Made by a program: the position numbers and the translations under genes. The notes beneath the pieces were generated by a model. It was not told where the DNA came from. It searched no databases and worked only from the letters and a program-made list of their open reading frames with translations. A stretch of 64,000 nucleotides of DNA from Heterodontus francisci (lineage: Eukaryota). Positions 1-64,000 of this stretch are shown here, piece after piece (the first letter of the stretch is position 1; each line of letters starts with the position of its first letter). The stretch spans positions 31,145,036 to 31,209,035 of the forward strand of contig NC_090401.1 of assembly GCF_036365525.1 (NCBI RefSeq), read 5' to 3'.

Positions 1-439
1 CTGCACCAGCCATCAATATCACACAAGTAACAGAAATACAATGGTAATTTATGAATATATTGGTGTATATGTGCAATAATTTTAAATGCTTATTATAGAA
101 AAGTAATATCGCTAAAAATGCAAACTGTAGAATAGCTACACTGCATCAAATTTCTTTGAACTATCCTCTATATTACCTGATATATGTTGGAGTTGCCTAA
201 AACCAAACAGAACTTCACTCGGAACAACCTGACACACAGCGCATTGCAGAATATATAGCAAACTGAGAGGAGTCTCCTGGGTCCTAATGCTCAATAAGTT
301 CAACATGTTCAATTTTCAATCCACCTCGATCTATTTTTTTTGCAGCAAGAACAGTCTCCCCCAGTATTTTATAACTGTAGTTTAGAACAGAAAGCCGAGG
401 GACGTCACCTTTTTTTTTCACTATTAATTTTTAACCAAG

Positions 440-548
440 GCGCTGAAGAGTCTGTAGATTCAAGAAATGGAAACTCCATTATCAGTTTCGTTTCCTCGGA
501 AATCCACATGATGTCACTGACAGCTCTTCAGCAGAAGCTTTTATAAAT
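440..548 (+). promoter_or_regulatory. Interferon-responsive promoter module C: IRF site, ISRE, overlapping GAS-like site, CRE-like site, TATA
   Basis: GAAATGGAAACT 464-475; AGTTTCGTTTCC 484-495; TTCCTCGGAA (TTC-N4-GAA) 492-501; TGATGTCA 509-516; TATAAAT 542-548. Homologous in reverse complement to 20163-20228 and 31243-31323. Confidence 0.75.
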
Positions 549-1234
549 GCAACAACGTTTAGAGATTTAAAACTTTAGAAGGTGTATGTATGTTGGAGAC
601 AGTTTTTAATTTGCCGCACTGATCTGAAACTAAAGTTGTGGATCAATGATGTCAATAGAAATGAAAACCAGGCAGTTTCAATAACACTGGCAGATCGGCA
701 GTGTTAGATTTACACCCAAGTGGCAAATTGAGAATCAACCCCATTGTGTGTGAACGGGATGTTGGAAACCAGTTGTTCTGACAGCAAGGAGGCCGACAGC
801 TCACTGGATTCAGGCTGGCCCAACGTTGGCCACTGGAGACCGCTGGGCCTGCAGCAAGTTAATCCCAGTAGATTGTCGCAATGGGGATGGAGGGCTGCCC
901 AGTGGCAGTGGCCCGGAAATGGGTGCCGTTCCCTTCTGCTACATGGTTGGCAACCCCACTGTGGATCACGTGTGGCGGGCGACCATTTTACATAGTAGAG
1001 GCAGAGCCCCCCACCACCCCCCCTCCAAATCACATGGCGGGGCGGGATGCGAGCAGTCAGTTACACCATCAGATGACTCTGGAGCAGGTACTGCTGCCAT
1101 ATTTAAAGGCCTGCCAGCCCTGCATTCACACCTGTTTTGGAGTTGTTTGCAGCTTTCAGTGTGCTGCTGAAAATGGTGTTGGATTGACTCCTGGATGACC
1201 ACCACCCCCCAAACTCCCGAGGAGGACACACAAG

Positions 1235-2980
1235 ATGGCTGAGCCAAGACACAGGATGGACCCAGGGTTTAGTGGTGCCTCCCTGCAGATTCTCCTCCAG
1301 GCTGCATGGGAAAGGAGGGAGGTCCTCTTGCCCAGCGATGGCAAGAAGAGGTCCTCTCCCCTGACCAAGCAAGCCTGGACCGAAATAACAGAGGAGGTCA
1401 GCAGCTGTGGGGTCACCCAACACAACTGGGTGCAGTGCCGAAAGAGGGTCAATGACCTCCTGCGTTTGGCCAAGGTGTCTGCTCCATAACTCTCTATTAC
1501 TGAGTGTAAGTGGCTATGCAGGAGGATGTGGGGCATGATGAGGGTGGCACAACCACAGTGATGGCAGAGGGGGTAAGGCATCACTACATCCTGACAGATG
1601 CATGGCTGCATGTTGGCCACAGGCCACCTTCTTTCACAGCTCACCCCCCATTAACTCCCCTGAGAGCGGATGGGAGCATGAGCTATATGTGATGCCCCAA
1701 TAGGAGACAAGGGGCTGACACTAGCAGAACTGTCATGTTGATCACTCTGCGAATTCTTACTATCTCTCTCTTTCCACTTGCAGGACAAGAGGTCCCACAA
1801 CAGGAGAAAGATGGCTCAGTCTGGCAGAGACCTTCCAGATCTACGGCCTCTCACCCCAGCCGAGGAAGAGGCCTTGGAATTGTTAGGGACCAAGGGCAGA
1901 CACACCATATCAGATCGAGAGACTACAGTCTCTACACAAGAGAGTGAGGCTTGGCTTCCATCAACATACGGATCACTTCTGGAGACACACATCACTTATG
2001 GTGGACATGACGAGATCTGCACAGAATAATCCACATGTTTATGTTCTCTCAGGCAAGTCGGCGGTCGCAGGAGATTCAACCAGAAGGGGGACAGCCATCC
2101 ACCTCTGAGGAGGAGGAGCACTCCGAGGATGAACTGTCCCATGACTTTCCTGCACCTTCCACCAGAGCAGAAACCAACACCTCAGTGGGTTTCTGCTTGG
2201 CTGTAGAATCAGGGTCACTAATTGGTGAGAGCACAGCATACATTCCGGAGCAGCTAGCTGAGGCTGAGACAACCGAGGACACTGATAGTCGGATCTGGCC
2301 AGGCCCATGCTGAGCCCCAGTCTGATGATGAGCCTATGGTATTGTCAGCACAGGGCATACTTGAGTTCCAGAGAGAGTAAGGCAACATCTGGCGACGATG
2401 CCAGAGGCTATGAGCGGACGATGGAGGAGTCCATCCGTGCCATGACTGCTGCCATGTCTCAGGCGTATGAGCACATGGCTTCTCCATCGAGAGGTTGGCG
2501 ACCCTCATGGAGGGCCAGATCCTACAGATGCGTGCAGACTTTCACACCACCGCGTTGGCCATGAACTTGATGCAGCAGGGTCAAGGCAAGAGAAGGACAA
2601 GGCGCCTGGAGTCTTCTCCATCTCCTGCTCCTTCTCTAGTGAGCAGGGAGGTTCAAGTGAACCTTGAAAGGGAGAAGGAGAGGCTTACATCCGCAGCTGG
2701 GGGCTCCCCTCAGGGCGCTCTGATTGTGGACACCGGCTCCTCAGCCCCTCTGCCAGTGAGACCACCTCCAGCAGCCTTGAGGCGTGAGGAGGGTTCTGCA
2801 CCAGTGCAGGAAACCTCCTGGCAGCAGGGGCCCTCCAGGCCTCAGGCAGCCAGAGGACAGCCACCAAAGTCATCACAGGCCATGGGGCAGCTTGATCAGC
2901 AGCCTGCCTCCAGCCCAGCAGCTAGCGCAGGGTTCACACCTCATTGGAGCACCCACAAACACGTTAATAAAACCACATAG
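1235..2980 (+). pseudogene. Harbinger Myb/SANT-like DNA-binding protein gene, spliced, frameshifted in its 3' part
   Basis: Exon 1235-1474 encodes FS..L..L..R..L..KQAWTEI..V..WVQCRKRVNDL (Myb/SANT-like). Exon 1784-1943 joins in phase (DKRSHNRR..LTPAEEEALELLG). Third exon from 2053 is acidic and P/S-rich, split over frames. Confidence 0.8.
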
Positions 2981-3205
2981 CTACACTTGAGGATTCATGA
3001 CTGTCAGAAATTTTACGTATTGATTAATTAAAAGTTCATTTGCTCAAATCATTAATGATCATTGTGTGAAAGCCATTTTCCAATAGGCCTTAATTGTGAT
3101 CTGCTGACATTCCCCTTCCCCATTACTGAAATGCCTATTTAACTACAGTCCTCATTAACATATGTTCTCCCATGGGCACAATTGTGGTTTGCAGCTGGGC
3201 GCAAA

Positions 3206-4381
3206 TCAGGGAACACAAATGGAAAGGAGGTGACAGACTACGTGCATCGAGGTGAGTCTTTCTTGGTTTCTCTGTGACTGGGCATCAGGAATGCTGGAAG
3301 CGGCTGATTGTGAGGTTGTCTCTTGTCTCCTTGGCACACAGCTCAATCTGCCTGGCCTCTGGTGCAAGGGCTTCAACATCCAGCACTGCTTGCTCCTTTC
3401 CCTCCTTTGCATCTCATCATCATATATGGCCTCCCGCCTCTGCAGTGCCAGATTGTGCCGAGCACAGCAGACCACCATGATACGCGATACTCTCACTGGG
3501 ACATACTGCAAGGCTCCACTGGAACGATCCAGGTACCAGAATCTCATCTTCAGCAGCCCAATGGCCTACTCAATGATCACTCAGGTGGAGCCATGGCAAG
3601 TGTTGTACCTCTCCTCTGCTGCAGTGCGGAAGCTGTTCAAAGGCATCAGTAGCCATGTCTTTGATGGGTAGCCCTTGTCACCGATAATCCATCCCTGAGG
3701 CAAGCGGTGTCCTGAAAAGCTGTGGCACCGGGACTGTAGACGTGTGTAAGCATCATGGCTGCTTCCCAGGAAGTGGGCACACACCAGCAGGAAATGCTTT
3801 CCTGTTGATTAAGGCAGCTGGATGGTCCGTGGGAACATTGATGCCCATACGCGAGCCGTCTATCACAACTTACACCGACATAAATCCAGTGTTGGCCCCG
3901 AACCTGATGGCCCTCTTGTCCTGACTGTCAGTGTTGGTCTGGTAGTTCATATAGTCACCGGCTCTCTTGAACAGGGCATTTGTCACCTCCTTGATTAAGC
4001 CAATGGGCTTCTGCCTGGGAGACCCCACACATGTTCCCGATGGAACCTGGAAAGATCCTGCTGCAGAAAGTTTTAGTGCCAAAGTGATCATCAGGGCCAT
4101 TGGCATAGGGTGACCCCCCCGCAAATCCCATAGATCACAACTCAACCTACAGCTGTGCATTAGTCTGTGATGGACTCCCTGAAGAGCCGTAGTCTTCACT
4201 GAGAATACCGCACGGACATTTGGAAGTGGCTGATTCGAGACTGGTACACTCTCTTGTGCAGGTGGGCCCTTCTTGGCATGGCCAGCTTCTGATGCTCCCA
4301 TCGAGGAGCTTCACGGGCAGGCACAGCTGACTCTTGGCCCTCCCTCCGTCCGAGGTGCTGTGTCATGCCATGGTGGTCCAA
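3206..4381 (-). pseudogene. Harbinger (HARBI1-like, DDE_Tnp_4) transposase remnant
   Basis: Fragments in different frames: GWIIGDKGYPSKTWLLMPL..AEERYN, MRFWYLDRSSGALQY..RVSRIMVVCCARHN, LKLSAAGSFQ..IKEVTNALF. Multiple frameshifts and stops. Confidence 0.88.
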
Positions 4382-6436
4382 AATTGACAGGGTGTATGAG
4401 ACTCATGCCAGGTAACCTGTGGGCCACCAGCGCACTGTTGATGCAGAGACAACCCTGCCTTGGCAACTGAGCTTTTGACAATTCTCCTGGTGGACTCCGT
4501 GATAGTCCTCAGTACCCACCCTGCTGATAGTCAACCCTCTCATCAAGCAGCAAGGGCGACCAAACATCTCTCACAGCAGTTTGGTTACCCAATACAGCCC
4601 CCGCAAACCCAAGCCCAAGCGCATCCCTCTTGCAGAGCCCCCGAGACCCCAACTCCGCCCCCCTTGCTGAGCATACAGCAACATAGACTGACAATGTCCT
4701 CCGAACCCCCCTCTTTCCCGCTGCAGCATTGTTCATAGCTGCCTCCCTGTCATGGCACTGAGGCCTCTCGCATCGTTGTGGCCGGTGTTTAACTGTCGTG
4801 AACCCGAAGCCGCCCGCTGTCCACTAAATCAAGAGCCAACCTTTAAAATCGAGGTTAATTAGATGTAAATGCATTACAAACAACTGCTCAGCAATTTAAA
4901 ATAGATTCCTGTCATATCAGGGCAGTAATGCTGCCTTGGTCCTTTCCTGCCGCTGGCAAAATCTGGGACCGTTGTCACAACACTGGATTTCCGGATGGAT
5001 GGTTCTGATGCGATTCTCTGTTCCCCCATGCCACCACTCCCACTTTAAAGGGCCGCATTAAATTCTGCCCATGGTGACATTCATTGCAGCTGTGTTGTGT
5101 TTCAATGATTCAATGTCAGTGCATTATTGCAAGCCGTGGCTTGAATGTATGCCCTTTTGGAATATAGTGATGTGAAGCAATGAGAGTTGCAAGCTTGCCT
5201 GAAGGTGTGGCACGGGTGCATAGTGAAGGTGGAATAGGTCAGCTTGCAGCACCTTGTTACATGCAGTATTTTGCCATCAACTTGGTTCATGGTACTGTTG
5301 TATTACCTTGAAGATTCCTTCGACTATTGAGCCTTCTCTATGTTATTCTGGGGTGTTTAAGATATTGTGCAGTGTTGAACCTGTCTGCCACCATCTCCAT
5401 ACCATACCCATACGTCAGCAGGGCACACATTCAAGACTAAAGGATAGGTTCCGGAGATGTGTTCAAAGTTGTGCTAACGTCTGCCTGTAAACCTAAGAAT
5501 GCATTTTGATGACCTCAGCAAATGACATTTGATGGGGTGAAATTCGCCTTGGTCTAACAGTATCGATCTAGAACCTCTTTCTTGCCAAACATTTGGCTTA
5601 AACCAGTATCTCATTAGCACAAATTGCTCTCCCAGTCACTCTGACTTCCCCCTAAGTGTGAGAGAGAAGAAGAGAATTGATTGGAAAAGTTAACACAGGC
5701 ACGGAGCCAATAGAATGGGTGTTTGAGGCATGCAAGTGCTGAAATGATTAATCTACTCGCTTCCCAAGTCTTGGCATTCCATCATTCAGTTATCTGCCCA
5801 TTCTACATGAGATAAGGAGATAATAAAATGGAAGTTTTTTTTAAAAAGCTTGGATGTTAAAAAAAAACTTACTGATTGGCAGTAACCCAAATATAATGTG
5901 AAGAGGATTCCAGTCTTTAGAAACAAGCAAAGGAACTTCTGTGTCTTAAAAAAATAAACACAAGTACAAATACATCTCAAACATGAAAACTCTTCAACTA
6001 GGATCTTAAAACAATCCATCGGTTTGAAAGAAGTTTACCTGGCCATTAAAGCAACCATGAGATTTTCAAAATTGTACATAACAGGGTATACTCCTGTAAC
6101 ACACAATTTAGTTAAAGGCAAAAAAAATAGTCAGAAGTAAATGTAAAAGAAAAACTGATACAATTGCTCATTAATCCAGAATAGAGATAGTGAATGTTTC
6201 ATGGCTAGAATTTTGGCTTGAAACGGGGTGTAGTTGACGATGATGGGAGATTAAAACCTACTGCCAGAGCTTAACTGCTGCATAATATCTTTCACACTGC
6301 TATATTCTGAAAGGCAAAACAGTCACAGAGAAAAGACATAATATTCAGAGCCTTTATTTATTTTCAGTCAGATTCTTCTTCATATACAGCATGTAAAGGA
6401 AAGATGTTCATTATTTTCAGTTGTCTTAAGGCACTT

Positions 6437-9400
6437 TTACTTTCCGTAGCGTAGGATCGAACCTAGGAAAGCACCTGCAGTTCCCAACACAATGTTGGCA
6501 CCTGCAGAGAGTCCAGCGGCCCCTTTAAAGAAAAGAAAAATATAAATGTGAATTAATTGCACACAATATGACATGTCAACAATTTGTTAATAATCAACAA
6601 TTCTTATAATCCAGATCTAAACAGTATCCAGAGGAAAGATCAAAACCCTATTATAACTGATTTTACTGTTAATTTCTTTATTTGTATTTACAATAAAGCC
6701 AACTCATTTATCATTAGCATGTTGTTGAGGTTAAAACATAATAGTATTAACATTTATTGCAAAAGTGCCTTCTCGCTTCTATTAAAACTGTACTGATAAG
6801 TTTCCGAGACAATTGGGTAATATAAAAATTTATTCAGCACTATCATAGATGCCCAGGAATTCAAATACTATCAGGGAGGCTTTAAACAAGAAAGACTGAG
6901 AAATGTTCATTACTTATCACTGAAGCTTACCAGCAGACTGAAGGACAGCCACCAGACTTCCAGCTGCTACACCTCCTCCATTGGCGACAGCTGCTGTAGA
7001 CATCATACTTGATGCAATAGAACTGCCTGCTATTCCAGCGCTGGTAAATCCCACTGCTCCCAGAACCACTGGCGCAGCAACAATGGTTGTAACTGAAGGA
7101 TGAAACATCCACATTTAAACACAACACATATACACACAGGAGCTTAACAATATTGCCTAAAGCCTGATACATACAATTGTAGCATATCAGAATTCTTCCT
7201 GTCTGCAATGATGGTTTATTTCCTTTACAACATTTCAATCCAGTATTTTGCAATATCAATTATATTTATAATAATCCAGATCCAAGATATGCTTCACAAT
7301 TTTCCTCAAGATCCCCTATCTGGAATTTCCACAGGGGTGCTCCGGATTATTTGCTGTAATTTTAGCAGAAAACCTACAGAAATGATACAAATGGCCACTT
7401 GTGCCTTTTCTTCAAGGTTTTTGCTTATATTCAAAAGTTATTGCAGATAATCTGGAGAACTCCCATCAAAATTCTATCGCTCAACCTTGAACAGCACTGA
7501 AGCCGAATAGAGGTAGCAGAATTAAACAGCAGTTCAAGAATAACAGCTACCAACAAATGTATCTCATGATTCATTTTGTGATGCTTGGACTGAAAATTAT
7601 AGAGGAACATCTATCAAATAGTAAAATATTGACTGCTTGCAGCAATCTAATCATACTGTATGTAAAGGTAGTGCTGTAAGTTGTCACATTACGTGCACTG
7701 TGACTGAACTAATATTACTTATTAGAAATTAGTATACGTAAGAAAGTTGTATAGGAGAAATTAATGGGGCTGAAGGTTGATAAGTCCCCAGGACCTGATA
7801 TTCTATATCCCAGAGTGTTAAAAGAGGTAGCTATGGAAATAGTGGATGCATTGGTGATCATCTTCCAAAATTCTATAGATTCTGGAGCAGTTCCTGCAGA
7901 TTGGAAGGTTGCAAATGTCACCTGACTATTTAAGAAGGAAAGGAGAGAGAAAACAGGGAATAACAAACCTGTTAGCCTTACATTAGTCATTGGGAAAATG
8001 CTCGAATCCATTCTAAAGGATGTGATAAATGGACACTTGGATAATAATGATCTGATTGGGAAATCATGTTTGATGAACCCGTTGGGAGTTTTTTTTGAGG
8101 ATGTTACGAACAGAATTGATAAAGGGGAGTCGGTGGATGTGGTATACCTGGATTTTCAGAAGGCTTTTGATAAAGTCCCCCACAGGAGATTGGTTTGCAA
8201 AATTAAAGCACATGGGATAGGAGGTACTATACTGGCATGGATTAAGGATTGGTTAACAGGCAGAAAGCAGAGAGTGGGAATAACTGGCTCATTCTCACGT
8301 TGGCAGGCTGTGACTAGTGGGATACGCGGGGATCAGTGTTTGAGCCCCAGCTCTGCACAATATCTAACATTGATTTGGATGTGGGAACCAAATGTAATAT
8401 TTCCAAGTTCACGGATAACACAAAACTAGGTGGGAATGTGTGTTGTGAGGAAGATGCCAAGTAGCTTCAAGGGGATTTGGACAGACTTAATGAGTGGGCA
8501 AGAACGTGGCAGATGGAATATAATGTGGAAAAATGTGAGGTTATCCACTTGGGTAGGAGGAATAGATGTGCAGAGTATTTCTTAAATGCTAAGAGATTAG
8601 AAGGTGTAGACGTACAAAGGGACCTCGGTGTCCTTGTCAATAAGTCACTGAAAGCTAACACGCAGGTGCAGCAAGCAATTAGGAAGGCTAATGGTATGTT
8701 AGCCTTTATCGCAAGAGGATTTGAGTACAGGAGTAGTAAAATCTTGCTTCAATTGTATAGAACATTGGTTAGACTGCACTTGGAGTACTGCGTGCAGTTT
8801 TGGTCCCCTTACCTTAGGAAGGGTATTATTGCCATAGAGGGAGTGCAACACCAGACTTGTTCCCGGGATGGCAGGACTGTCCTCTGAAGAGAGATTGGGG
8901 AAACTGGGCCTGTATTCTCTAGAGTTTCGAAGAATGAGAGTAATCTCATTGAAACCTACAAAATACTTAAAGGGATAGACAGGGTAGATGCAGCTAAGAT
9001 GTTTCCCCTGGTTGGGGAGTCTCGTACCAGGGGACACAATTTCAAAATAAGGGGGAAGCTTAGGTCAGAGATGAGGAGAAATTTCTTTACTCAGAGGGTT
9101 GTGAATCTTTGGAATTCACTACCCCAGAGGGCTGTGAAAACTCAGTCATTGAGTATGTTTAAAGCAGAGATTGACAAATTTGTAAATACAAGTGACATAA
9201 GGGGATATGAGGATATTGTGGGAAAATGGCATTAAAGTGGATGATCAGCCATGATCATACTGAATGGCGGGGCAGGCTCGATGGGCTGAATGGCCTACTC
9301 CTGCTCCTATGTTCCTATACTGTGATAGTCCCATTGTACACCATAACTTCCTACCGTGTCCTTCCTTCTTTAGTTGATACAGCTGCTGAATTACTTGAAA

Positions 9401-12400
9401 ATAATATATTACATCACTGTTGTCTACTTTAAACATATCAGGGGTGATCTAAACCGGCCCACCCAGCAGAAACTAGGTGGGTGGGAGTTAAAATTGACCA
9501 GGAAACTTACCCAACAGAAATTCATCAGGGATTCACTGATTTGAATTTTAACCTGCTCTACTGAATAGGTGTCAAGAACACAAGTCCAAAGCCAGCTCAG
9601 GCCTTCTTTACATATGCGTGTCAGGTCCTGATGACATCAGGATCCAACTGCAACTTTAACTGCTGTCATGAGCAGCGATACCGTTGTAGATTTTCTGCGG
9701 GGTGAAGAAGGAGCTCCAGGCAGAAGAGGCCCATAGAAATAAAGCGTTTTTGCTTTTCTTGTGAGGCCTAGAGGTGCAGGAGTGCTTTTCCAGACACCGC
9801 AAGGAAATAGTTTGGGCCTCAGTTGACGCAGACTCCTACCAAAATTCTTTCCCCAAAACGAGACCCCTGGGAGACTGCCCTCGAAGTTGATCCTGTCTAG
9901 TTGTCTGTTGGGTGGTCTCTAAACCGCCAATCGAGCTATGGACTGCTAGTTTTTCAGTTTCCTTCTAAGAAATTGGGTTCTGGATCATGCTTTGGTGGTG
10001 TGAGGGTAGGGAGCTGGGGAATAGGAACAGAAGTAGCTGGCGAAAGGGATAAGAAATAAATGGCTATGGCTTCCACTACCCACCGCATCTGAAAATAAAA
10101 ACATATGGGAGCAGAAGAACATAGAGAAACAAGCAAAAAAAGAAAATCAAGTTCTGGCAAGAGATGGAGTAAAAAAGTAGAATGTGAGAGCGATAGAGAG
10201 TGAAATAGCAACACAAATATGACATGGATAGATGCAAGACTATATAGAGTCATAGAGTTATACAGCACAGAAACAGGCCCTTCAGTCCACCGTGTCTCTC
10301 CCGGCCATCAAGCACCTAACTATTCTAATCCCATTTTCCTGCACTTGGCCCGTAGCCTTGTATGCTATGGCGTTTCAAGTGCTCATCTAAATACTTCTTA
10401 AATGTTGTAAGGGTTCCTGCCTCTACCACCTCTTCAGGCAGTGCGTTCCAGATTCCAACCACCCCCTGGGTGAAAAGTTTTTCCTCAAATCCCCTCTAAA
10501 CCACCTGCCCCTTACCCTAAATCAACACCCCCTGGTTATCGACCCCTCTGCTAACGGACAAAGTTTCTTCCTATCTAACCTATCAATGCCCCTCAATTTT
10601 ATATACCTCAATCAGCTGCGCCCTCAGCCTTCTCTGCTCTAAGGAAAACAACCCAAGCCTTTTCAGTCTCTCTTCATAGCTGAAATGCTCCAGCCCAGAC
10701 AACATCCTGGTGAATCTCCTCTGCACCCTCTCCAGTGCAATCACATCCTTCCATAGTGTGGTGCCCAGAACTGTATACAGTACTTCAGCTGTGGCCTAAC
10801 TAGTGTTTTATACAGATAACCTCCCTGCTCTTATATTCTATGCCTTAGCTAATAAAGGCAAGTATCCCATATGCCTTCCTAACCACCTTATCTACCTGTG
10901 TTGCTGCCTTCAGTGATATATGGACAAGTACACCCAGGTCCCTCTGACCCTCTGTACTTCCTAGGATCCTACCATCCATTGTATATGCCCTTGCCTTGTT
11001 AGTCCTCCCAAAATGCATCACCTCACACTCCTCAGGATTAAATTCCATTTACCACTGCTCCGCCCATCTATATCGTCCTGTAATCTAAGGCTTTCCTCCT
11101 CACTATTTACGACACCACCAATTTTCATGTCATCTGCGAACCTACTGAGAGGATTTGAAAATTTGTGTCAGAGCCCCTGCCATCTCCTCCCTTGCCTCAC
11201 ATAACAGCCTGGGATACATCTCATTTGGGCCTGGGGATTTATCCACTGTTAAGCCTGCTAAAACTGCAGAAAAGATTCACAAGGATGTTGCCTGGTTTGG
11301 AGGGCTTGAGTTATAAAGAGAAATTGGATAGGCTGTGTCTGTTTTCCCTGGAGCAAAGAAGGCTGAGAAGGGTCATGCTAGAGGTATATAAAATTATGAG
11401 AGGCATAAATAGGGTAGACAGCCAGAGTCTGTTTCCCATGGTAGGGGTGACTAAAACTAGAGGGCATAGATTTAAGGTGAAAGGGAGGAGGTTTAAAAGG
11501 GATCAAAGGGGTACATTTTTCACACAAAGAATAGTGGGTATTTGGAATGAGCTGCCTGAGGAGGTGGAGGAGGCAAGAACAGTAGCAACATTTAAGAGGC
11601 ATCTGGACAGGTACTTGAATGAGCAAGGCATAGAGGGATATGGAATTAATGCAGGCAGGTGGGATTAGTATAGATAGGCATTATGGTCGGCATGGACGTG
11701 GTGGGCCGAAGGGCCTGTTTCTATGCAGTACGACTCTATGACTTTCAATGCTAATATGTTCAAGTATATCACAATCCCCCTCCCTGATCTCTGCACCTAC
11801 ATTGTCCTTCTCCATAATGAACACAGATGAAAAGTAATCATTTAAAGCCTCACCAATGTCCTCCGGCTCCGCACACAGATTGCCACTTTGGTCCCTAATG
11901 GGCTCTACGCTTTCCCTGATTATCCTCTTGCCCTGAATATAGTTATAAAACGCCTTGGGATTTTCCTTTATCTTGCTCGCCATTGGTTTTTTCATGTCCC
12001 CTCTTCGCTCTCCTAATTACTTTTTTTAAGTACCCCCCTACACTTTCTATACTCCTCTAAGACCTCCACTGTTTCTAGCACTCTGAATCTGCCATAAGCC
12101 TCCTTTTTTTCTTCCTTATCCAATCCTCTATATCCCTTGACATCCAGGGTTCCCTGGACTTGTTGGTCCTATCCTTCACCTTAATGGTTACATGTTGGCT
12201 CTGAACTCTCACTATTTCTTCTTTGAATGACTCCCACTGGTCTGATGTAGACTTTCCTACAAGTAGCTGCTCCCAGCCCACTTTGGCCAGTTTTATCATA
12301 TTGAAATTGGCCTTCCCCCAATACAGTACCTTTATTACCAGTCCCTTTTTGTCCTTTTCCATAACTGCCTTAAATCTTAGCGTTACGGTCACTATCCCCG

Positions 12401-14612: not shown

Positions 14613-14773
14613 GATAATCTGCTAATTTGCACACTGTAAACTTAAAAAAAGTCTTTCATTAGAGGGGAATAAATAAATAAATAATAAAAACCAGTAGATG
14701 TATTTGAATTTCCAAAAGGGAATTGATAAAGTGCCACATAAAAAGGTTATTACACAAGATAAGAGCTCATGAT

Positions 14774-48784: not shown

Positions 48785-48945
48785 GATAATCTGCTAATTT
48801 GCACACTGTAAACTTAAAAAAAGTCTTTCATTAGAGGGGAATAAATAAATAAATAATAAAAACCAGTAGATGTATTTGAATTTCCAAAAGGGAATTGATA
48901 AGGTGCCACATAAAAAGGTTATTACACAAGATAAGAGCTCATGAT

Positions 48946-53110: not shown

Positions 53111-54242
53111 GCTGCACTTTTCTTGATTCCTTCCCACCAGTGTGGGTACCCAGGATGGTACCGTGGTCTAAGCAGTATCTTCCAAAAGTTTAGCATTACT
53201 TTACTTTGTTCCTCTCTGCCCCTGTACATAAAACATGAAATAAATGTTTCTGGCCCCTCTCCCACCCCCAATAACCATACAATTCATTCCTTGCCCTCTC
53301 CCCCTACAGAATACTTACCTGGCGTACCTGATCTTCCCCCTCCACTTTTCATAAACTGTGAACTTTACCCCTTCCCAGAAGCCCCTACACCAATTAGAGA
53401 AGTGTGACCCTTTTCCACCAACTCCCCCCGCACTGAAACCCTTACCTGCTCCCCCACTCCCCACCAGTGTTACACCTCGTATCCCCAGATGGGGATCTGA
53501 AGGTGCTGGAGTGCCAGCCACTGGCAGCAATATTGCTACAGAGCAGGGACGGCAGGAGCAGGTAAGTAATTAAATTGTTGATTACAAAAATTTAAATATT
53601 GAAATTTTGAACCCTTGCCAAGCGGTGGGGGGCCACCACAAGACCTCGCCACTGCTGGCAATATGAGGCCAGACCTTCCCGACGTCGAGGCCCCTGGCGG
53701 GCTTCTCCCGGAGGCAATTTCCAGTATCCCCCGCCATGACCCCCGATATCGATGGTGCTGTAAAATTCAGCCCAAAGAGTGGGCAGCAGGTGCTTATATA
53801 AATCATCTCATCACATCTTTACCTACTCCGTTATGATGACAAATGTCCTTGGGGGAAGAATACAAACCATGTCCTATGTCATTGAGTTATATCCCTCAAC
53901 AAAACTATCTGGTGGCATTTGCACTTTGCCTGCTCGTGATGCTCTCAAATGTCTCGTTATATGACAAGTCTGTGTAGGCCAAATAAAAACTAAGAGAAAG
54001 AGAAACAGACCGGGGAAAGAGTAAGAAATACAGCGGGAAAGAAAAAAGTCCAATGGGTCTGGAAAAATGAGAGAGATGCAAAGATCAGGTGGCAGAGGAC
54101 TTCTGGGCAATACCGCAGGAGATCCACTAGTTACAAAGTACTGAAACTTTCCGGTGAACCCAGACCTGCGGGGATCCTAGAAAATATACAGAAAAAACAA
54201 ACTACCGGATAGTTGGCAACTTGTGTATTTACACTATTTACT

Positions 54243-54381
54243 AAATTTAAAGTGACGCTGTCAACCTGGAACGGGGAAGTGAAACTGATCTTCAGTGTAA
54301 AATCTGATCCCTTCAAGCTGTTAGTGATGCAATCCGATTTCTGAAGAAACGAAACTGAATCCATGTAGTTTCAATGTCCTG
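54243..54381 (-). promoter_or_regulatory. Probable interferon-inducible promoter of gene B, copy 2
   Basis: GGAAGTGAAACT 54275-54286, GAAACGAAACT 54346-54356. Confidence 0.72.
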
Positions 54382-57176
54382 TTCAAACAGTGGAGATCAC
54401 ACAATGAAGTAAAGTTCATTTTTACCGCCATGTTTACTCTCTAAATTTGCTCTGTGGTTGCAGTGTTTAAGGAGCTGGCCTGATTCCAGCTTGTTGAAAA
54501 CAACAATTCCTGATTTAACACTTCAACGATTTCTTCCCTTTGCTGGAGAGTGAGCTGCAGAGGAGAGAAAAAGAAACAAGAAAGGGGAACAAAACAAGAA
54601 AGATAGAAAAGAAAAGGAGATAAACAGTCATCTTCACACTGCACCGAATGCTGTAGTACAGAGTCCATTTTCATGCCATGCAATATTGATATCATTGATA
54701 GACACTAATGGTGTGACTGTTAATGATTCAATAGTTCAGATAGTTAGCTCTTATCAACCATTCAATTGTTACTGGTAATAGGGCAAAGCACTAGTCTATT
54801 TCCAGCTTTAAAATGGAGGGAGAGAATTTCCACAGGGCTGGATGACCTCCCCCCCACCCTCTCGATGGTCCCCACCCGCCACCCCCCCCCCAACCCCCCC
54901 CCCCCGCCATACTTGGGCCCAGCCAATTGACCCAGCGAGGCCCCACACACTTACCTTTTCTGATTAAGAACTGATTAAGATCATCCAAAGCTCTTCTGCT
55001 GAGGTCCTAACTCACACCAAGTTCCGTTTGCTCATCATCCCCATGCTCACTGACCTAAATTGGTTCCTGGTTAAGCAACGCCTCGATTTTAAAATTCTCA
55101 TCCTTATTATCAAAAGCCTCCATGACCTTGCCCCTCCCTAGCTTTGTAATCATCTCCAGCTCTAAAATCCTCTGAGACATCTCTGCTCCTCCAATTCTGG
55201 CTTTTTGTGCATTCCTGATTTTAATCACCCCCACCACTCGTGGCCGTGCCTTCAGCTGCCTAGGCCTTAAACTCTGGAATTCGTTCCCTATATCTCTCTG
55301 ACTCTTTATCGCTCTTTCTTCCTTCAAACCTACTTGTTCGACCAAGCTTTTAGTCATCTGCCCTAATATCTCTTTATGTGGCTCAGTGATGTCAAATTTT
55401 ATTTGATGACACTTCTGTGAAATCCCTTGGGAGGTTTTATTTTGTTGAGGGAGATATATAAATACAACTTGCTGTTGATGAGTTGCATATTTTGGACTTT
55501 ATTTGTTCCTGGTTTAACTTCAAAGGACTTTTCCAAATCTTCTGACACAGAGTTGCAGGAGGCTTCAGGGACAGTGGGGTCACAATTCCCATATAAAGTT
55601 ATTGCCAAAGCATTATTTTTAGCACAGGATTGTTCCTGTTACTTTCTGCAATTGAAGAATAATAAATATTTTCTGATAGCTTAGTTTAGTTTAGTTTAGT
55701 TTAGAGATACAGGACTAAAACAGGCCATTCGGCCCACCGAGTCTGTGCCGACCATCTGCCACCCAATAGTGCCCTATGGATCAAATAAAAGCAAAATACT
55801 GCGGATGCTGGAAATCTGAAATAAAAACAGAAAGTGCATCTGTGGAGAGAGAAGCAGAGGTAATGTTTCAAGTCTGTGACCTTTCTTCAGAACTCAAGAG
55901 CCCTATGGATCTCCACTACTAACAATCCCTTACCAGAGCTTTTCCTATTTATTATCATTTTCTGCTTCCTGTTGTTTAGCCAGATTTCAGTCCAACTTTC
56001 AATGCCTATTTAGCATTTATTCTATGAAGCTTAATCTTACAATGTGAACTTTATCAAGTCCCTCTGAAAATTCAAGCAGATTATATGGTTGATTCCATGA
56101 TTGGCAACTCCTGGTGAGAAGCAGCACGGGTCAGAAAATCGTGGGTCTGCAGCCCCTGATTTTCCATCCATTTAAATATTTAAATTAATATACCAGGGTC
56201 TGTAAGCCTGTGATTTCCCGAACAGCATGCCCTATAAGTGCCAATTCTTGCCAGGAGAGCTCAATTGGAGAATCAGTCCTGATATCCATGGGACTGACAT
56301 CCCAACAACTCAGTTACTTCCTTCAAAAAGTTAGAATAGGTTTGTGAGGCTCAACCTCATGTTACAAAATCCAAAATACCTGTGGTTTTTGGCCTCCAGG
56401 CTTTTCAGATGTTGATAGCATGCTATGCAATGCTTCTGGACACAAAACGTGATGAAACATACTGTGTTAAAACATTATGCTGCATTACTTGTGTGTGACA
56501 AAGTGGCACCGTTTTTCTTCTTTCCCAAAAGTTTGCCAAACATTTTTCATGAACTTGTTGCCACTTTAAAATGCAGCTGCTAATTCATGAGTCTGGATGT
56601 GCACCAAAAGTGATTGTTAGGAACAAAGAAATAACGTGAGCAATATAGTAAATGTTATCAGGTTTGTGCACAACCAGAAAAGGACAGGAGGAAGATCTTC
56701 CTCAGCTTGGTCCCAACATCAGAAGAACCCCCAGTGACAACACCCTCCCCCGCCGCCCACCCCCAAGGAACCAGTGTTAAAAGTTTGATTCTTACTCCAC
56801 CCTCACAGTTGAAGTTGATAATTTGGTAGCATATCCTTTTCAAATTAGCGTCAAATAGGTGCTATAAATTCTGCCCACTCAGCCTGTTTAAACCCATTTC
56901 ACACAAAGACTTCAGAACCAGCAGAGGAGTCTTTCATCCCTTCAGTTTAGGCCGCATCTAGATCCACAGCACAGAGATGAAATGTGGGTGTTCTGTTCAA
57001 AGGTATCGCTGAGTTGTTGCCCCATTTTTGCTTCCTGCTGATTTGGGAGGTTCGATCCTGAATATTGATATATTTTACTCATCTATATGGATGAATATTA
57101 ACTCTAATTAGTAAAATAATAACCAGGGAGCCCGCAGTTAATATTTTAAAGTAATAAGTTGATTTCATGGTACAAT

Positions 57177-57781
57177 GGGCTGAATTGTATTTGGGCAGCA
57201 CCAGCACCATTTTTAAAGGGCCTTAAGCCCTTCCAAATAATTATAATTTTTAAAGGGAAAATATAATTGATTTTTATTAAATATAAAAATAAGTGATGGA
57301 GGCCTTTCCCCAACCCCCCACAATGGGGGGTTTCATTGCCTGAAATGACAATCAATTGATTTTGTCAAATACCCAACGTTTCCCCCCCAACCTTCAATCT
57401 TTTGCCCTTCAACTGGATCCCACCATCCTCACGTCCAATAAAAATTGATTTCCCCACTCCTCCACACCTCTTGCCTTGAAAATGTTATTCCTCCCTCCTC
57501 CCCACCAGGTTCTCACCTCGGAACTCCGCGCGAAGGCCTAACGGAGGCTGTAAAATCAGCGTGGGACGGCAGGTAAGTTATTTTGCATACATTTATCTGC
57601 ATATGAAGATTCAGGGCCCGCTGCCAGGCAGTGGGGGGAGCCACACCGCGGTTCACCCGTTGCTGGTAATATGCAGCGGGCCCTTCTCAACATTGCAGGT
57701 CAAGGCGGGCCTCTCCCCACAGAATTTTACGGGTCCCCGCGCCGCGACCCACAGCATCGAGGGGCCAGAAAAATTCAGCCC
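57177..57781. mobile_element. Harbinger-type MITE with AAT TSD, copy 2
   Basis: AAT|GGGCTGAATT...AATTCAGCCC|AAT. Confidence 0.85.
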
Positions 57782-59733
57782 AATGTGTCTTTCTCCATGA
57801 ACTGTAATTAGGAGTATGGTATTAAACTAACAATTATAGGACTATTCATAGGAATTGTTTCAATTGTAAGGCACAATTCCAAGTATTTCCCATTTCCCAA
57901 CCCATTGCACATTGAATCATTAATAATGGTAATTTCCTGTGTAAATAAAGACCTTGCATTTATATATCTTTCATGTCTTCAGTATGTCCTAAAACACTTC
58001 TCAGCCAATTAATTACTATTTTGAAGCAGAGTCACAGTTCTGCTGGCAAATGACAACAAATTAATGCACAGCAAGATCACAAAAACAGCAGTGAGATAAA
58101 TGACCAGCTATTTTGTTTCAATGTTGTTGGTTTAGGAATGTGTTGACCAGGACACCAGGAGAACTCCCCTGCTATTTTTCAAATAGTGCCATCATTTTCT
58201 TACACCTGAATAACAAGATGAGACCTCGGTTAAAATGTCTCATCCAAGAGGGAAGCACCTCCGCCACCATGCAGAAATTTCAGCCTAAATTAGGCTCTCA
58301 AGTGCTGTAGGGGGTCGGTGGGGGGGGGGGGGGGGGGGGCGTGGGGGGGGGTGGTGCTTTCACCTACAGCTGTCTGACTTGGGCATGAGAGGGGCTACCA
58401 GTTAACCAAGGGGGATGGTTTGCCATCACCAGTGCATAGGAAACACTTTCCTCCCGCATATGTTTGAGTCTGGTGGTTTTGTCTCTTCAGTCTGTTCTGG
58501 ATTCAAAGTTGGGTCATTATTGCTCAGTGACATTACTCTGAGCCAATTCACCACCTAGTGAATCTCCCAAATTAGCAGCTGTTAGTGTTTGTAATGGGTT
58601 GACAGCCAGTACAGAATTACTGAAAAAGTGCAAGTGTCTTTCATAAGGTGCTGAACATTAAAGTGCACAGATTAAGTGATAATTTAAATATACAGTAACC
58701 CAATATAAATGCAGAACTTTAGAGACAAATACTCTAACTTTTCAGAACCCATAATATTAAATTGTAAGTCAAGAAGAATAGTCACTCTCCAAGACAGATG
58801 AAATAACAGCAGCTTGCATTTGTACAGTGCCTTCAATGTTGAAAAATATTCCAAGGAGCTTTACTGAGATATAATCACAGCCAAAGAAGGAAAGATTAAG
58901 AGCAGACCAAAAGCTTGGTCAAAGAGTTGGGTTTTAAGGGAAAAGAAAACACCAAAACAAATGTTATTTAAGGTGTAATTTAATCAAGGTTTGTTACATA
59001 AAAGTATTAAGATTTGGTTATTGTGATTTAAAGTATGACATCTTCTCAGATATTCATTTGTAGATGCAATGTGTACTTTTATCACCTCAAATCATTCTGA
59101 CATAAGATATTGCAGATGCAGGGTTTCCCAAGACCCACATGTCAGCCATGAGACTTGTAGTTTTTGAGCAGTGTACTGTATTTATGAAGTAGCCCCACTC
59201 CTGACAAAAATCTCATGCGATACAGTTGAGAACCTTGCAACTCCAGTTATATTTCCATGCTTTATGCCAAAGTTACAGGGGAGAGGGGTTTTATGGCAAA
59301 ACAACAGCAACTTGCATTTATAGAACACTTTTAATGTAACAAATGTTCCCGTGTGCTTTTACAAGAGCATTATCAGACACCATTTGACACAACCACATAA
59401 AAGGACAGCTTGGGGATCAAGGAGGTACATTTTAAGGAGCACTTTACAAATGGGATATATACTTCAGCCCAACCCCCAGCAGATAAGATTCATTCTTGGA
59501 GTGGACCACAATAAGTATTGGTGTTACGACCAGGTGAGAAAGAGAAACTGGAGATTGCTGTCAATCTCCCCATGAGCTTCAAGTATTTTCTGCATTTGCA
59601 CTGTTAAAAACTAATTAAAGTCAGCACTAAAAGTTAGGGTTAGTACTTAACTATGCAAGGACCCTTTTAATGATTTATGTTCCTGCAATACCACTTAACC
59701 TCTCCAGCCCAGAAAGGGAACAGTTGAAGCTAT

Positions 59734-60568
59734 TGTAACAACTCGGTGAGAAAGGTGACGAGGGGTCCCTCTCAGTCTTCACCTGGTCTTACTGTAACAG
59801 GGTTTAATTTTAAACACACAGTGTTTGAGCTACCCCTTGGTGAATCCTTGTTCACCCCTTTCCAATTATAAGGCAAAGAAACCAGCGCAAACAGGCTTTC
59901 TTAGGTTTAAAGAAAAAAAGGTGAAATTTTATTAAACTTGGAGGTTTTAAAACACAAACACTAATTCGGTTAACGCCTATGAATACACGACGTGCCCACG
60001 CTAGCATGCATACATGCAAATAGAGACAGAGAAGAGCAGAAGAAAAATAAAATGGATAGGTTTGAGGCAATATCTGAAGAGTTGTTGTTATAGTTCTTCC
60101 AGCTCACTGTCGAGTCCTTGATTATAGGTAGATCTTGCTTTTCGTTGGGCTCCAGTATTCTTCTTAAACCTAGTTCACTGTAGGTGACCTTTCTCTCTTG
60201 GGGTTCATGTGTCTTCAGTGGGTTTTGGAGTTCCGCGAGAAAGAGATGGGAGCAGACAGGCAGGAGAGGAGGTCTGCTTCAGTCCAGGAGCATTCTGCTT
60301 TTGCCAGTTCAAACACTGCAACAGCCAGTTAGTTATGTGACTAACTGGCCTGGCCATGTCAGTTTGTGGATTGAATTGAAGCAGGGAATAGCTCCTTTGT
60401 CTACGAGCACTGTCTGTTAATCTGTAAATGTATCTTTCCAGCCAGGGGCCTGGCAACCCCTTGTCACAGGTCTTCTCTTTTTCTCAGCAACAATTTGAAA
60501 TTTAATGTCCATGTGGCAAAAATAATAAGCCACATTGTTGCCAGTTTGGGGGGGGTGGCTGCATGACA
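59734..60568. mobile_element. Solo LTR-like element, copy 2
   Basis: Duplicate of 25556-26401 with a shorter poly-G. Confidence 0.7.
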
Positions 60569-60945
60569 ATTGGTATTAAATTCAATGGTGCACTTACAGG
60601 ATCCACAGAACACTTGCCATTTCTATGAAATGTAGTCACAGAACTGAATGCCTCCATTCACCCTGTGGTCAGTTATAGAATGACAAAATCTGGGGCTGAA
60701 ACAGTGTAGAATGTTTCACCCAAAACCAATTAAGAAGATTGCTAACAGGGCATCTGGGTATTAGCAAAAGGATAGAACCACCTATACTAAAATTAAAAGT
60801 ATTTTCAATTACTGGATTTATTTTGAAACCCCAACCTAGAGAATATTCAACAGGTACTAACAGAATGCTACTTCATCTCCGGCCCAAGTAAATCCTCAGG
60901 AGCTGCCTAACTGCGGAGAATCTACTTTAAAGCAGCATGCTGAAT

Positions 60946-63266
60946 TTAGGGCTCATCTTCAGAACTCTGAATAAGCTCTTTAGCAGCACAGCCAGTGGCA
61001 GCACCAGCACTTCCTACTATAGCAGCACCAGCAGTAGAGAGTCCAGCAGCTCCTTCATGAAGAAAAGAAAATATATTAATCCTTACAAATATGTAGCAAT
61101 ATTTAGAACACATTCGTTAAACTTTATAAAACTGCCTCCATTCCCACTCTGAGAATCTGTTTATCCTGTGCTATGAACCATTCTTCAAAAAAAATAAAAT
61201 GCACAGCCAAGAAACTATTCAGGCCTTTGATCTTATTTATTTTATTTATTGATTTAGAGATACAGCACTGAAACAGGCCATTCGGCCCACCGAGTCTGTG
61301 CCGACCAACAACCACCCATTTATACTAACCCTACAGTAATTCCATATTCCCTACCACCTACCTACACTAGGGGCAATTTACAATGGCCAATTTACCCATC
61401 AACCTGCAAGTCTTTGGATGTAGGAGGAAACACCCAGCAAAAACCCACGCGGTCACAGGGAGAACTTGCAAACTCCACACAGGCAGTACCCAGAATCGAA
61501 CCCGGGTCCCTGGAGCTGCAGTGCAAACCACTGCGCCACTGTGCTGCCCTTGCTAATATAAAGGCTGCTGAGTAAGTCTTCTCTCCTGAATGGCCATCCA
61601 GTTTTTCCCTAATTTGTGCATTAAAAAGTTATTTCAAAATACAAACTACAGAATAGAGCTTTTTGTAGTGACTTTGCTGATCAGTTTCACTCTATATTAA
61701 ACAAACATAGCAGCACCAGAGTTTTATTATGACACTCGTTCACCAATATTAGCCATTTAAGCAATCACTATCTCACCCACAGCCAAGACTGATAACTTCC
61801 TGTCTGAGAAACCACAGAGCCCTGCCCCCACACAAACTTCACCACTTTCTATGTTTATACATGGAAGGATGACTTAAAGGTGTTGGACAAGTGATTACAT
61901 TAAGATCAATCTTCATAACTTTTCCTCAATTTGATTTAAAAGAAAACATGGAATCTTACCAATAGACTGGAGGGTTGCGACAACACCACCAGCTGCTACA
62001 CCCCCTCCATTAGCGACTGCAGCCACAGACATCATTTTTGCTCCCAAGGATCCAGCTGCTATTCCAGCACCAGTGAAGCCAGCTGCACCAACAACAACTG
62101 GGGCAGCAACTACTGCAGCAGCTGCAAAAATAGAATAAAGTCAGTTGATAAGGGAACTAAAAATTTGCTTGGTGATACAGCACCCCGTTTAGGCTCTTGG
62201 CTGTAGAGATCACAGCTCCAACAAATCCAAAAATGGCATGGGAAGAAATGGAGCAAAGGGGTTTGCCATGACCCTGGCAGCCTTTCAAAAAGAAAGGAGC
62301 ATGACCTTCAGTTAGCAAGAGTATAAATTACACCATGATGTCTTTGTTTTAAAAGAGCACATCATCATGTCACATGTTTGCATTTTAAAGTTGCAAATTT
62401 GAAAAAGAAAGGTGACTTTGCAATGAAATACTCAACCCTGATACTCAGAATGGACCATAAAAAACGTACAGCACAGGAGGCCATTCAGGCCATCATGCCT
62501 GTGCTGCCTCTTTGAAAGAAAAGTCATGCTTAGTTCCACACCTCCACTTATTGTCCATAACCTGCAAGTTCCTCATCCTCAACTATCTGTCCATCTCCCT
62601 TTTAAAACTATTTATGGAATTAGCTTCCACCACCTTTTCAGACAGAGCATTCCAGATTCCCACAACTCAGTGAAAAAAAAAATCTCTCCTCATCTTCCCA
62701 CTAGATCTTTGGCCAATGATTTGAAATCAATGACATCTGGTTATTAACCCAATATTTTTTTCTACTTTATTTGCTTCTTTAACCACCTTATTAACTTGCC
62801 CTGCCACCTTTATGAATTTGTGTATATGAACAACAAAGTCTCTCTGTTCATCTACACTCACTCAATCTAGGCTGGCAATTTAGTGCAGTGCTAAAGGACG
62901 GATGAATTGTCAGAGATGCCATTTTTCCAAGGAGATGTAAAACCAAGCTGCCATCTGCTTATTCAGGTGGATGCAGCAAAAGATGCCATGGCACTTTTTG
63001 AAGAATAGCAGGAGTTCTTCTGGTGTTCTGGGCAACATTCCTCAATCAGTAAATACCACTGAAAATAGATCATCTAGTTATTTTTTCCATTTGCTGTTTG
63101 TTGGACCATCCTGTGCGCAAATTGGTTGCCACATTTCCTGACAGAGCAGCAGTGACTGCACATAATCAAGCAATTGTGAAGCAATATCGGGACATCCTGA
63201 GAAGGTGTATATCAATGCAATTTCTTTTACCTGCTCCTCCTGCAACCCAGGCAACTGTCGACCAAT
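60946..63266 (-). CDS. ISG12 family IFI6/IFI27-like protein (gene A, copy 2), partial; exons 63266-63231, 62121-61960, 61052-60946; first two exons expected beyond the window
   Basis: The three 3' exons match copy 1, with intact splice sites and stop codon. Confidence 0.85.
61233..61549 (-). mobile_element. HE1/V-SINE, copy 2
   Basis: Duplicate of 27068-27384. Confidence 0.85.
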
Positions 63267-64000
63267 CTATAAATACATGGGCAAAACAGAAATATTAGAC
63301 AAGTATTCAACGGTGAGACAAGCCACTCATTTGATAACTTTCTTGACTGCTAAGTCAGTAATGTAGGAAAGCAGTCAAGTTACAACCAGCATTTTATTAG
63401 TTTGCAGACTACTTGTGTAATTGTTTCCTCTCAGCATGAGCACTAATAATGTCAGGGGCACATTCATATACAATCCTACAGATCCCAAGCTCAAGGGTCC
63501 CTGCTAAATATGGGGGTCCCTCCAGGGTTAGCAAACTATGTCCAATAAGCATCTCCCTGTCCACAATCCCATTGGACAAGAAATCTCCTGGCCACGCCCA
63601 TGAGTCTCAGTGCTGGAGAGCTGCAGTCCAGTTTTCTCCTTTCAGGTAGGTTTTAATGAATGGGGATGAGGGGGGAGGGAGTTGTTCAGGGTTGCTGAAG
63701 GACCCTAAAGAGCCCTAAGAATTCTTAATTGGTCTCTGATTAAGCTATTTTTATATTACTTACTTCTAGGCTATTGGCACCAGTTCTCAGGCAGCTGAAG
63801 GCAACAGTGTAGCCTTGCCGGAGTTGCAAAGGCTGGTGATTGGGAGGACCTGGTTTTAAGAAAAATGCCTGCACTGGGTCATTTTCTATCAAGTTCGTGG
63901 ATGCAAAAATAACTGGGAGTGTCCATCTGACACTTTCCCAATGCAGTGAACAATACTGGTTTAGAAGGAAAAAAGTGGTTAAGTGTTGCATTCCCCCAGC

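Follow-up and report, generated by a model that had tools for sequence, protein, structure and literature searches.

Tandem ISG12 clusters are already known from zebrafish and sea bass. The zebrafish isg12 cluster comprises eight tandem genes, six of them interferon-inducible, and the report that describes it counts ISG12 among the ISG families with the most duplications (10.1101/693333). In European sea bass, a cluster of five IFI27L2/IFI27L2A genes is described as a QTL with a major effect on resistance to viral nervous necrosis (PMC11899128, PMC10161657), and higher expression of this cluster goes with survival of the viral disease (PMC11899128). Relatives in mammals and fish are known to have antiviral or apoptotic activity at membranes of the ER or of mitochondria (10.1101/693333, PMC11899128). 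A literature search, in which subscription journals were thinly covered, returned no earlier paper on a shark ISG12 array.

The array of Heterodontus francisci analyzed here adds to this familiar antiviral-cluster pattern. It shares with the zebrafish cluster the PF06140 family, the tandem layout and lineage-specific expansion, a habit of the family that a previous sequence-only reading of this DNA had named and that 10.1101/693333 supports. It differs in that the shark repeats a whole two-gene block of 34 kb, promoters and repeats included, at >99% identity, and in that interferon induction of the shark genes is a prediction. The sea bass locus is likewise a small tandem ISG12 cluster in a fish, and its link between expression and survival is a precedent for dose being of consequence. 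The sea bass copies, however, are diverged, with one-to-one orthologues in striped bass, and are described as flanked by galectin-8 and cN-1A, whereas SMIM12-type and GKAP/DLGAP-type exons are found in the left flank of the shark array.

We refer to the 64,000-nucleotide stretch of DNA that was analyzed as the window. Self-BLAST of the window aligned positions 1-29837 to 34188-64000 at an offset of 34,187, with 99.07% identity over 29,866 columns (197 mismatches, 20 gap openings), while the second-best self-match spanned 89 bp. MAFFT alignment of the same two stretches gave 206 mismatches in 29,785 columns and 14 indels. Together with the presence of two PF06140 genes per unit, this confirms the head-to-tail, two-gene unit of about 34.2 kb that the sequence-only reading had proposed. 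Its two indel markers were also recovered by MAFFT, the 14-bp one at 11017/45202 and the other, given as about 20 bp, at 14841/49013, where its size is 17 bp. The suggestion that the array may extend past the window was borne out on the flanks, since a gap-free array of about 158 kb covers window coordinates -72510 to 85229 and holds five gene pairs, head-to-tail, each pair made up of one gene A (94 aa) and one gene B (127 aa). Along the direction of transcription the order is C, A5, B5, A4, B4, A3, B3, A2, B2, A1, B1, D, and two older ISG12 paralogues lie outside the array. Each gene has its five loci on one contig, and the assembly holds no further copy of A or B. The count of N is zero across the 414 kb of array and flanks, with no assembly gap between copies, and the array contains no SbfI site. 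The units lie in the window as follows.

1..29837, unstranded: first aligned copy, which runs from the right part of segment Y3 through the whole of X4 into the start of Y4
34188..64000, unstranded: second aligned copy, which runs from the right part of Y4 through X5 into the start of Y5
16886..51037, unstranded: one complete unit of 34,152 bp (X4 + Y4), its register fixed from the array's right end

The main exons of both genes match PF06140 well above the curated cut-off of 29.1 bits (76.9 bits for A, 74.4 bits for B), as do 12 of 12 matches in the genome. Reading frames are open in all ten gene copies, and coding exons visible in the window have GT-AG ends, in agreement with the earlier claims of two intact ISG12-family genes per unit and of intact coding exons and splice sites. 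The proteins are small (94 and 127 aa), hydrophobic by hydropathy profile and Ala/Gly-rich, and are encoded in several exons as in the rest of the family, those of gene B being modelled by homology.

6437..17560, minus strand: gene A copy 3 (IFI27-like, 94 aa), from splice joints in RNA contigs, ORF and PF06140; exon 1 non-coding, ending at 17469; exon 2, 14576-14633; exon 3, 6931-7092; coding part of exon 4, 6437-6522
40623..51712, minus strand: gene A copy 4; one exon ending at 51621, the others at 48748-48805, 41117-41278 and 40623-40708
26779..34479, minus strand: gene B copy 4, encoding 127 aa with a hydrophobic leader at the N-terminus; exon model by homology with GT-AG ends
31026-31077, 30015-30041, 29066-29101, 27795-27956 and 26779-26885, minus strand: coding exons of gene B copy 4, homology-based model
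about 34364-34479, minus strand: predicted non-coding exon 1 and core promoter of gene B copy 4, 85% identical over 48 bp to the gene A exon-1 region
60946..64000, minus strand: gene B copy 5, of which the last three coding exons (63231-63266, 61960-62121, 60946-61052) fall inside the window and the first exons just past its end
177..500, minus strand: gene B copy 3, with its body to the left of the window; predicted exon 1 and core promoter, and an ISRE-like site at 486-495

RNA contigs of H. francisci and of a second organism (organism B) show gene A in spliced form, with joints at 17469/14633, 17469/14640, 14576/7092 and 6930/6521; of the presumed RNA runs X5-X10, spliced GT-AG joints show that X5 and X9 contain cDNA. 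In copy 3 the ATG is at 14612, and a second acceptor is at 14640. Copy 4 differs from copy 3 by a single amino acid, a G to V change near the C-terminus. Four of the five B proteins are identical, and their N-terminus resembles a signal peptide. Compared as proteins only, apart from genomic context, gene A matches the leaderless ray protein P0061 (of the pair P0061, P0052) at 62 of 94 positions, and gene B aligns end-to-end with the leader-bearing shark/chimaera IFI27L2A-like proteins P0023, P0029, P0079 and P0080 (95, 91, 80 and 80 of 127 identical). Of the six best matches of gene B among 120 homologues, five come from sharks or chimaeras and one from a lungfish, and 95 of 127 residues are identical to a Cetorhinus protein, which fits the cartilaginous-fish origin that had been suggested. 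By analogy with their relatives, A and B are predicted to encode small membrane proteins induced by interferon, and the array would increase the dose of this interferon-response pair. Variable positions make up 8 of 562 coding sites (1.4%) versus 1.1% over all of Y; we saw no sign of selection on the coding sites of A and B, where 8 variable sites give no power.

The sequence-only reading had held that no breakpoint is visible in the window. We find one at 17588/17589, with its copy at 51740/51741, just upstream of the first exon of gene A.

17588..17756 (copy 51740-51908), unstranded: old duplication junction; homology to the A promoter and exon 1 ends at 17588, followed by a LINE 3'-end fragment (17593-17753) and then segment X
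20105..20215 (copy 54258-54368), unstranded: pair of ISRE-like sites lying 2.6 kb upstream of exon 1 of gene A
34673..34682, unstranded: ISRE-like site in a AGTTTCGTTTCC context, some 200 bp upstream of the predicted core promoter of gene B

The original of segment X is in the left flank. Two contigs of run X5 covering 17469-17658 and 17724-18051 cross the junction region with zero mismatches, and gene A transcripts are spliced from the junction-type first exon; among the pieces of DNA run X1 listed, none bridges the junction. X1 and X5 come from one sample, possibly the source of the assembly. The ISRE-like sites are candidates by sequence, picked with what we take to be the ISRE consensus, and the loose GAAA-N1-2-GAAA pattern occurs at a background rate of 0.33 per kb in the region. 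A strict scan within about 1-2.5 kb of the first coding or first exon of A, A5 and B found none, the candidates lying farther upstream. One of the two sites upstream of gene A is an inverted homologue of the gene B ISRE region (78% over 46 bp). The copies differ in these putative sites: a 2.6-kb deletion in the leftmost unit removes both of them, leaving A1 without upstream sites, and the site upstream of gene B, intact in four of five copies, is altered by a C>T change in B2.

Within the core, copies differ by only 0.08-0.69%. All ten Y pairs are distinct (85-158 mismatches per 22.9 kb), and the closest (0.37, 0.375 and 0.39%) are all among Y1, Y2 and Y5. All ten possible two-copy site patterns occur among the five Y copies; neighbouring informative sites share a pattern in 37 of 72 pairs versus 8.9 expected (p = 1e-5), and the four-gamete test is failed by 1598 of 2628 site pairs, with 84 of 333 failing under 1 kb apart versus 1042 of 1570 over 5 kb apart. 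The edges are far more diverged: the left edge X' carries 276 differences in 8,780 aligned bases (3.1%), and at the right edge the tail differs by 4.1% and the intron-1/exon-1 pieces by 6.4, 11.7 and 13.3%. Private sites of the leftmost copy are concentrated in its first 6 kb (21 of 33, p = 7e-6). Edges at 3-13% and a core at 0.08-0.69% indicate that the duplication is likely old and that only the core was recently expanded or homogenised. Thus, the description of the array as young holds for the last round in its core and probably fails for its origin: an identity of 99% between copies dates the last expansion or homogenisation, not the first duplication. Taking 7e-10 per generation, the one shark mutation rate that has been measured (in another species), the last homogenisation would fall 0.5-5 million generations ago. 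The main A exon shows 5 differences in 163 bases in organism B and 1 variable base among the five array copies. The organism B contig shows 8 differences in 256 bases to the junction-type intron 1 and the right-flank paralogue is farther (11.7%), which points to a first duplication older than the split of H. francisci and organism B.

We consider it probable that this five-cassette array with open frames goes back to a single old A-B duplication and that unequal crossing-over and gene conversion later expanded it and made its copies uniform. A and B, lying next to each other, would have been duplicated once, long ago, with DNA downstream of B fused about 45 bp upstream of the TATA-like element of A, so that the upstream region of A1-A4 would have been replaced by DNA with two ISRE-like sites. 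Misaligned exchanges would later have lifted the count to five and overwritten the core, leaving the edges old; the driver may be either selection or drift. Concerted evolution of tandem arrays with diverged terminal units is a general model, and the shark array shares its homogeneous core, older edges and mosaic tracts, with paralogues closer than orthologues; the mechanism would be the same. Unequal exchange would then drive the turnover of this shark innate-immune locus in much the same way as in the ISG12 clusters of teleosts.

A single-copy locus with its two haplotypes assembled in tandem, the danger to which the sequence-only reading had pointed, would belong to a known class of error, false duplication on one scaffold, although PMC9516828 describes false duplications as mostly separated by a gap. 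Two haplotypes cannot yield five mutually distinct copies, however; the between-unit junction is present in X5 contigs and is exon 1 of spliced transcripts, and X-type DNA contigs exceed half of the Y depth. Such a pure artefact is very unlikely, the least probable of the alternatives. A real but shorter array, for instance of three units per haplotype, with two haplotypes partly merged into five units, is unlikely but the most serious competitor. Copy differences of 0.08-0.69% overlap the 0.2% nucleotide diversity given for another shark (PMC10587355), switching between haplotypes by the assembler could also produce mosaic patterns, and the X1 contig depths along the unit (29-31, 25.5-26.7 and 15.8-20.5), which are relative steps without a single-copy control and not copy numbers, are compatible with five copies per haplotype and equally with two merged three-unit haplotypes. 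Against it, there is no gap in 414 kb, no copy pair stands out as allelic along its length, and the five Y contigs listed in X1 differ from the first window copy at 1, 4, 10, 0 and 0 places, exactly that copy's differences from the five-copy majority, which the DNA contigs thus follow in five of five cases.

An array of more than five units, collapsed in the assembly, is scarcely probable. The X1 depth has no single-copy reference, and at 2 of 14 checked sites the contig allele is the minority among assembled copies, suggesting that the true copy mix may differ from the assembly; but all 14 contig alleles are present in another assembled copy, and stray X1 contigs from elsewhere have a depth of 5.5-6.9, about one-fifth of that of Y, a weak indication in repeats. 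For copy-number variation between individuals, which the sequence-only reading had thought possible, run X16, a targeted capture of another individual, gave <0.1x in three unique bins at 6.0-7.6 kb. The purely recent amplification of the sequence-only reading is also quite unlikely; in it, one cassette lately became five, with the diverged edges reflecting unrelated older paralogy or fast-decaying flanks. The core does exceed 99% identity over 158 kb, and the right-flank exon-1 region, which carries a retrocopy and an LTR-element insertion, may be decaying. The edges, however, are colinear continuations of the unit itself, head-to-tail closure needs segment X and the junction, whose flank counterparts are 3-13% diverged, and the junction-type exon 1 and intron 1 are already present in organism B.

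Returning to an old duplication with later homogenisation, a more speculative and rather doubtful extension is that the junction altered the regulation of A by giving it new upstream DNA with two ISRE-like sites, that selection for dose multiplied the block, and that copy number now segregates, with copies in differing regulatory states (no upstream sites at A1, the ancestral promoter at A5, a damaged site at B2). If true, a slowly mutating shark would provide an antiviral gene pair whose dose varies naturally in a series that can be genotyped. With the breakpoints and copy markers located exactly, copy number and copy-specific induction can be measured, and dose differences could matter, by the sea bass precedent (PMC11899128).

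No right-hand neighbour gene was found among the 147 of 520 non-repeat flank ORFs scanned. Synteny with the mammalian loci was considered, with human positions of FAM76, AHDC1, OTUB and connexin genes as we take them to be, and rejected, and we do not propose orthology of gene B to IFI6: FAM76- and DUF4683(AHDC1)-type genes share the contig with the array at a distance of 28-29 Mb, a different contig carries the OTUB-type match, and connexins lie at 29.2-29.4 and 32.9 Mb. Within the unit, no third protein-coding gene was seen among 19 ORFs scanned, apart from transposon relics.

3209..4310 (copy near 37393-38497), minus strand: broken DDE_Tnp_4 transposase relic in several frames, present in every unit (PF13359 at 3584-3808, E 1.2e-5)
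7725..9315, plus strand: LINE reverse-transcriptase fragment, broken, inside intron 2 of gene A (PF00078 at 7926-8426), one of many repeats

The DDE_Tnp_4 relic is presumably of the PIF/Harbinger-type superfamily. Repeats in the flanks match 43% of the unit.

Self-alignment of the window yielded a single block, 1-29837 versus 34188-64000, at 99.07% identity, and a MAFFT alignment of the two copies showed 206 substitutions and 14 indels. The sequence-only reading had proposed two indels as markers of a young, ~34.2-kb tandem of two ISG12 genes: the 14-bp one is present at 11017/45202, and the other, put at ~20 bp, is present at 14841/49013 with a size of 17 bp. With the comparison extended by 200 kb to the left and 150 kb to the right, identity above 99% spanned 157.7 kb, from -72510 to 85229 (negative positions lie left of the window), and the 414 kb of window and flanks contained no N. 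The ISG12 family profile (PF06140) gave 12 matches in the 6.0-Gb assembly, every one on the minus strand of contig C31, which carries the window at 31145036-31209035, and within 220 kb: five copies each of genes A and B, numbered from left to right, and two more distant paralogues, C and D. A unique 1.3-kb gene B probe found exactly five full-length loci, all in this region.

Two alternating segments make up the unit, in the order X' Y1 X2 Y2 X3 Y3 X4 Y4 X5 Y5 tail, X' being a diverged counterpart of X in the left flank. Y (~23.6 kb) carries the coding sequence of gene A together with most of gene B; X (10.5 kb) carries the last exon of gene B, intergenic DNA and the first exon of gene A. In segment X2, 2.6 kb corresponding to 18606-21233 is deleted. 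Approximately 43% of one unit has matches to repeats in the flanks, and its repeats include a DDE_Tnp_4 relic and LINE fragments. On either side of the array, in the same orientation as its genes, lies a more diverged single-copy paralogue, C to the right and D to the left, each with an open main exon.

Genes flanking the array (L numbers denote pieces of flanking DNA)
window coordinates ~106357-106521 (L025), minus strand: paralogue C, PF06140 match
window coordinates -112755 to -112591 (L009), minus strand: paralogue D, PF06140 match
L008:8744-9061: SMIM12-type gene, left neighbour of the cluster, PF15990
L002:4637-5095 and L003:7175-7738: GKAP/DLGAP-type exons, left neighbours of the cluster, PF03359

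Gene A encodes 94 aa in three coding exons, and two non-synonymous sites give four protein variants. Splice joints 17469/14633, 14576/7092 and 6930/6521, with GT-AG ends, occur in cDNA contigs of run X5 (which shares its sample with the DNA runs) and run X9 (a second organism, organism B); they settle the exon structure and reveal a further, non-coding exon 1. The run X5 contigs show both letters at 6444 and at 7073, and thus at least two gene A sequence types are transcribed, which may be paralogues or alleles. A run X5 contig of exon 1 (17469-17658) extends 70 bases beyond the between-unit junction into a LINE fragment, upstream of a TATA-like element; some transcripts may start within the repeat, starts being beyond what contigs can show.

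For gene B, homology and splice signals predict five coding exons and a 127-aa protein with a hydrophobic leader, which can be aligned over its full length with proteins of sharks and chimaeras and is identical at 95 of 127 residues to P0023, a Cetorhinus protein from the homologue search. The B2-B5 proteins are identical, and B1 differs at four residues. In B1 (-72885 to -68861; L013, L014, L036) the 5' exons are of the homogenised type, while older sequence makes up the last exon and the 3' part of the main exon, where four residues are changed and one further change is silent; by its sequence, this copy looks chimeric.

All five copies are mutually distinct (Y pairs differ by 85-158 substitutions per 22.9 kb, X pairs by 6-40); therefore the false tandem assembly of a single locus from its two haplotypes, which the sequence-only reading had considered possible, cannot explain them. 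Two run X5 contigs cross the junction found only between units and match it exactly, and the exon 1 beside it is used in spliced transcripts. The region is gap-free, unlike most false duplications, which gaps most often separate (PMC9516828). In DNA run X1, from one sample with run X5 and perhaps the source of the assembly, window copy 1 is 1, 4, 10, 0 and 0 letters away from the five Y contigs listed, and the same numbers of letters separate it from the five-copy majority. All 14 single-contig X1 alleles checked, picked among 40 listed of 769, were found in another assembled copy, 12 of them as the majority. We regard the tandem arrangement as secure and the count of five units as less so: relative contig depths in run X1 (29-31 at 6.0-10.3 kb, 25.5-26.7 at 14.3-16.0 kb and 15.8-20.5 at 17.8-20.9 kb) step along the unit in a manner that agrees with two three-unit haplotypes merged by the assembly as well as with five units per haplotype. 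Overall, the locus is quite probably a real tandem array, of five units in the assembly, with an old origin and a recently homogenised core.

Both edges of the array are old. Between X' and X, 276 of 8,780 aligned bases are mismatched (3.1%), and there are several indels. At the right end the last 580 bp of the array have diverged by 4.1%; in the flank beyond follow pieces of gene A intron 1 and exon 1 that are 6.4, 11.7 and 13.3% diverged and are broken up by an LTR-element relic and a SEC61G-like retrocopy. At 7e-10 mutations per generation, a rate taken from another species, the epaulette shark (PMC10587355), and carrying a tenfold interval, core divergence corresponds to 0.5-5 million generations and that of X' to ~22 million. 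In organism B the end of exon 1 is of the junction type, and an intron-1 contig, with 8 differences in 256 bases, is nearer to the junction type than the right-flank paralogue is, suggesting that the first duplication probably predates the split of the two organisms.

Inside the array all ten two-copy site patterns occur, arranged in tracts: adjacent informative sites have a common pattern in 37 of 72 cases versus 8.9 in shuffles (p = 1e-5), and site-pair incompatibility grows with distance, from 84/333 at <1 kb to 1042/1570 at >5 kb. In the leftmost Y, 21 of 33 private sites fall within the first 6 kb (p = 7e-6). Such mosaic tracts are expected from unequal crossing-over and gene conversion, though haplotype switching in the assembly could contribute to them. 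The X copies (16886-27429) are mutually closer, at 0.08-0.38%, than the Y copies (27430-51037), at 0.37-0.69%, perhaps because one X type spread later. No signal of selection was seen in coding variation (8/562 sites), which is as high as elsewhere.

Tandem ISG12 clusters are already known, and the shark array is a further case of this type. ISG12 is reported among the most duplicated ISG families, with eight tandem genes in zebrafish, six of them inducible (10.1101/693333); European sea bass has a five-gene tandem cluster (PMC11899128; PMC10161657), whose higher expression is reported to go with survival of viral nervous necrosis (PMC11899128). The shark array is set apart by its two-gene block, by the near-identity of its copies and by a two-stage history that can still be read; none of the papers listed by our literature searches described a shark ISG12 array.

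Genes A and B have a core-promoter motif in common (85% over 48 bp). The A5 promoter, in the right flank, matches gene B over 79 bp, whereas in A1-A4 the match ends at 17588, the point at which the sequence passes into a LINE 3' fragment and segment X, which suggests that the upstream DNA of A1-A4 was likely replaced. Segment X contains two ISRE-like sites at 20105-20215, which X2 has lost by deletion and X', X3, X4 and X5 retain; the ISRE-like site of gene B, at 34673, is intact in four copies and carries C>T in B2. These are candidate sites; loose ISRE patterns are frequent (0.33 per kb). An X-segment ISRE-like site (20183-20228) is an inverted homologue of the gene B ISRE region (34648-34691; 78% over 46 bp, and 75% over 67 bp in X') and may be left over from a promoter on the opposite strand.

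At the A5 exon-1/intron-1 border lies a processed, frameshifted retrocopy (L023:8346-8719, window coordinates ~92346-92719 in the right flank; PF00584, E 6.5e-6), which we take to be SEC61G-like from its N-terminal sequence. It ends in poly(A), and the splice donor falls within what appears to be a 17-bp target-site duplication; the first donor looks intact. The first intron of A5 exceeds that of A1-A4 by 5.4 kb, within which sits a broken LTR-retroelement relic (L023:4437-5796; RT_RNaseH, Integrase_H2C2, rve).
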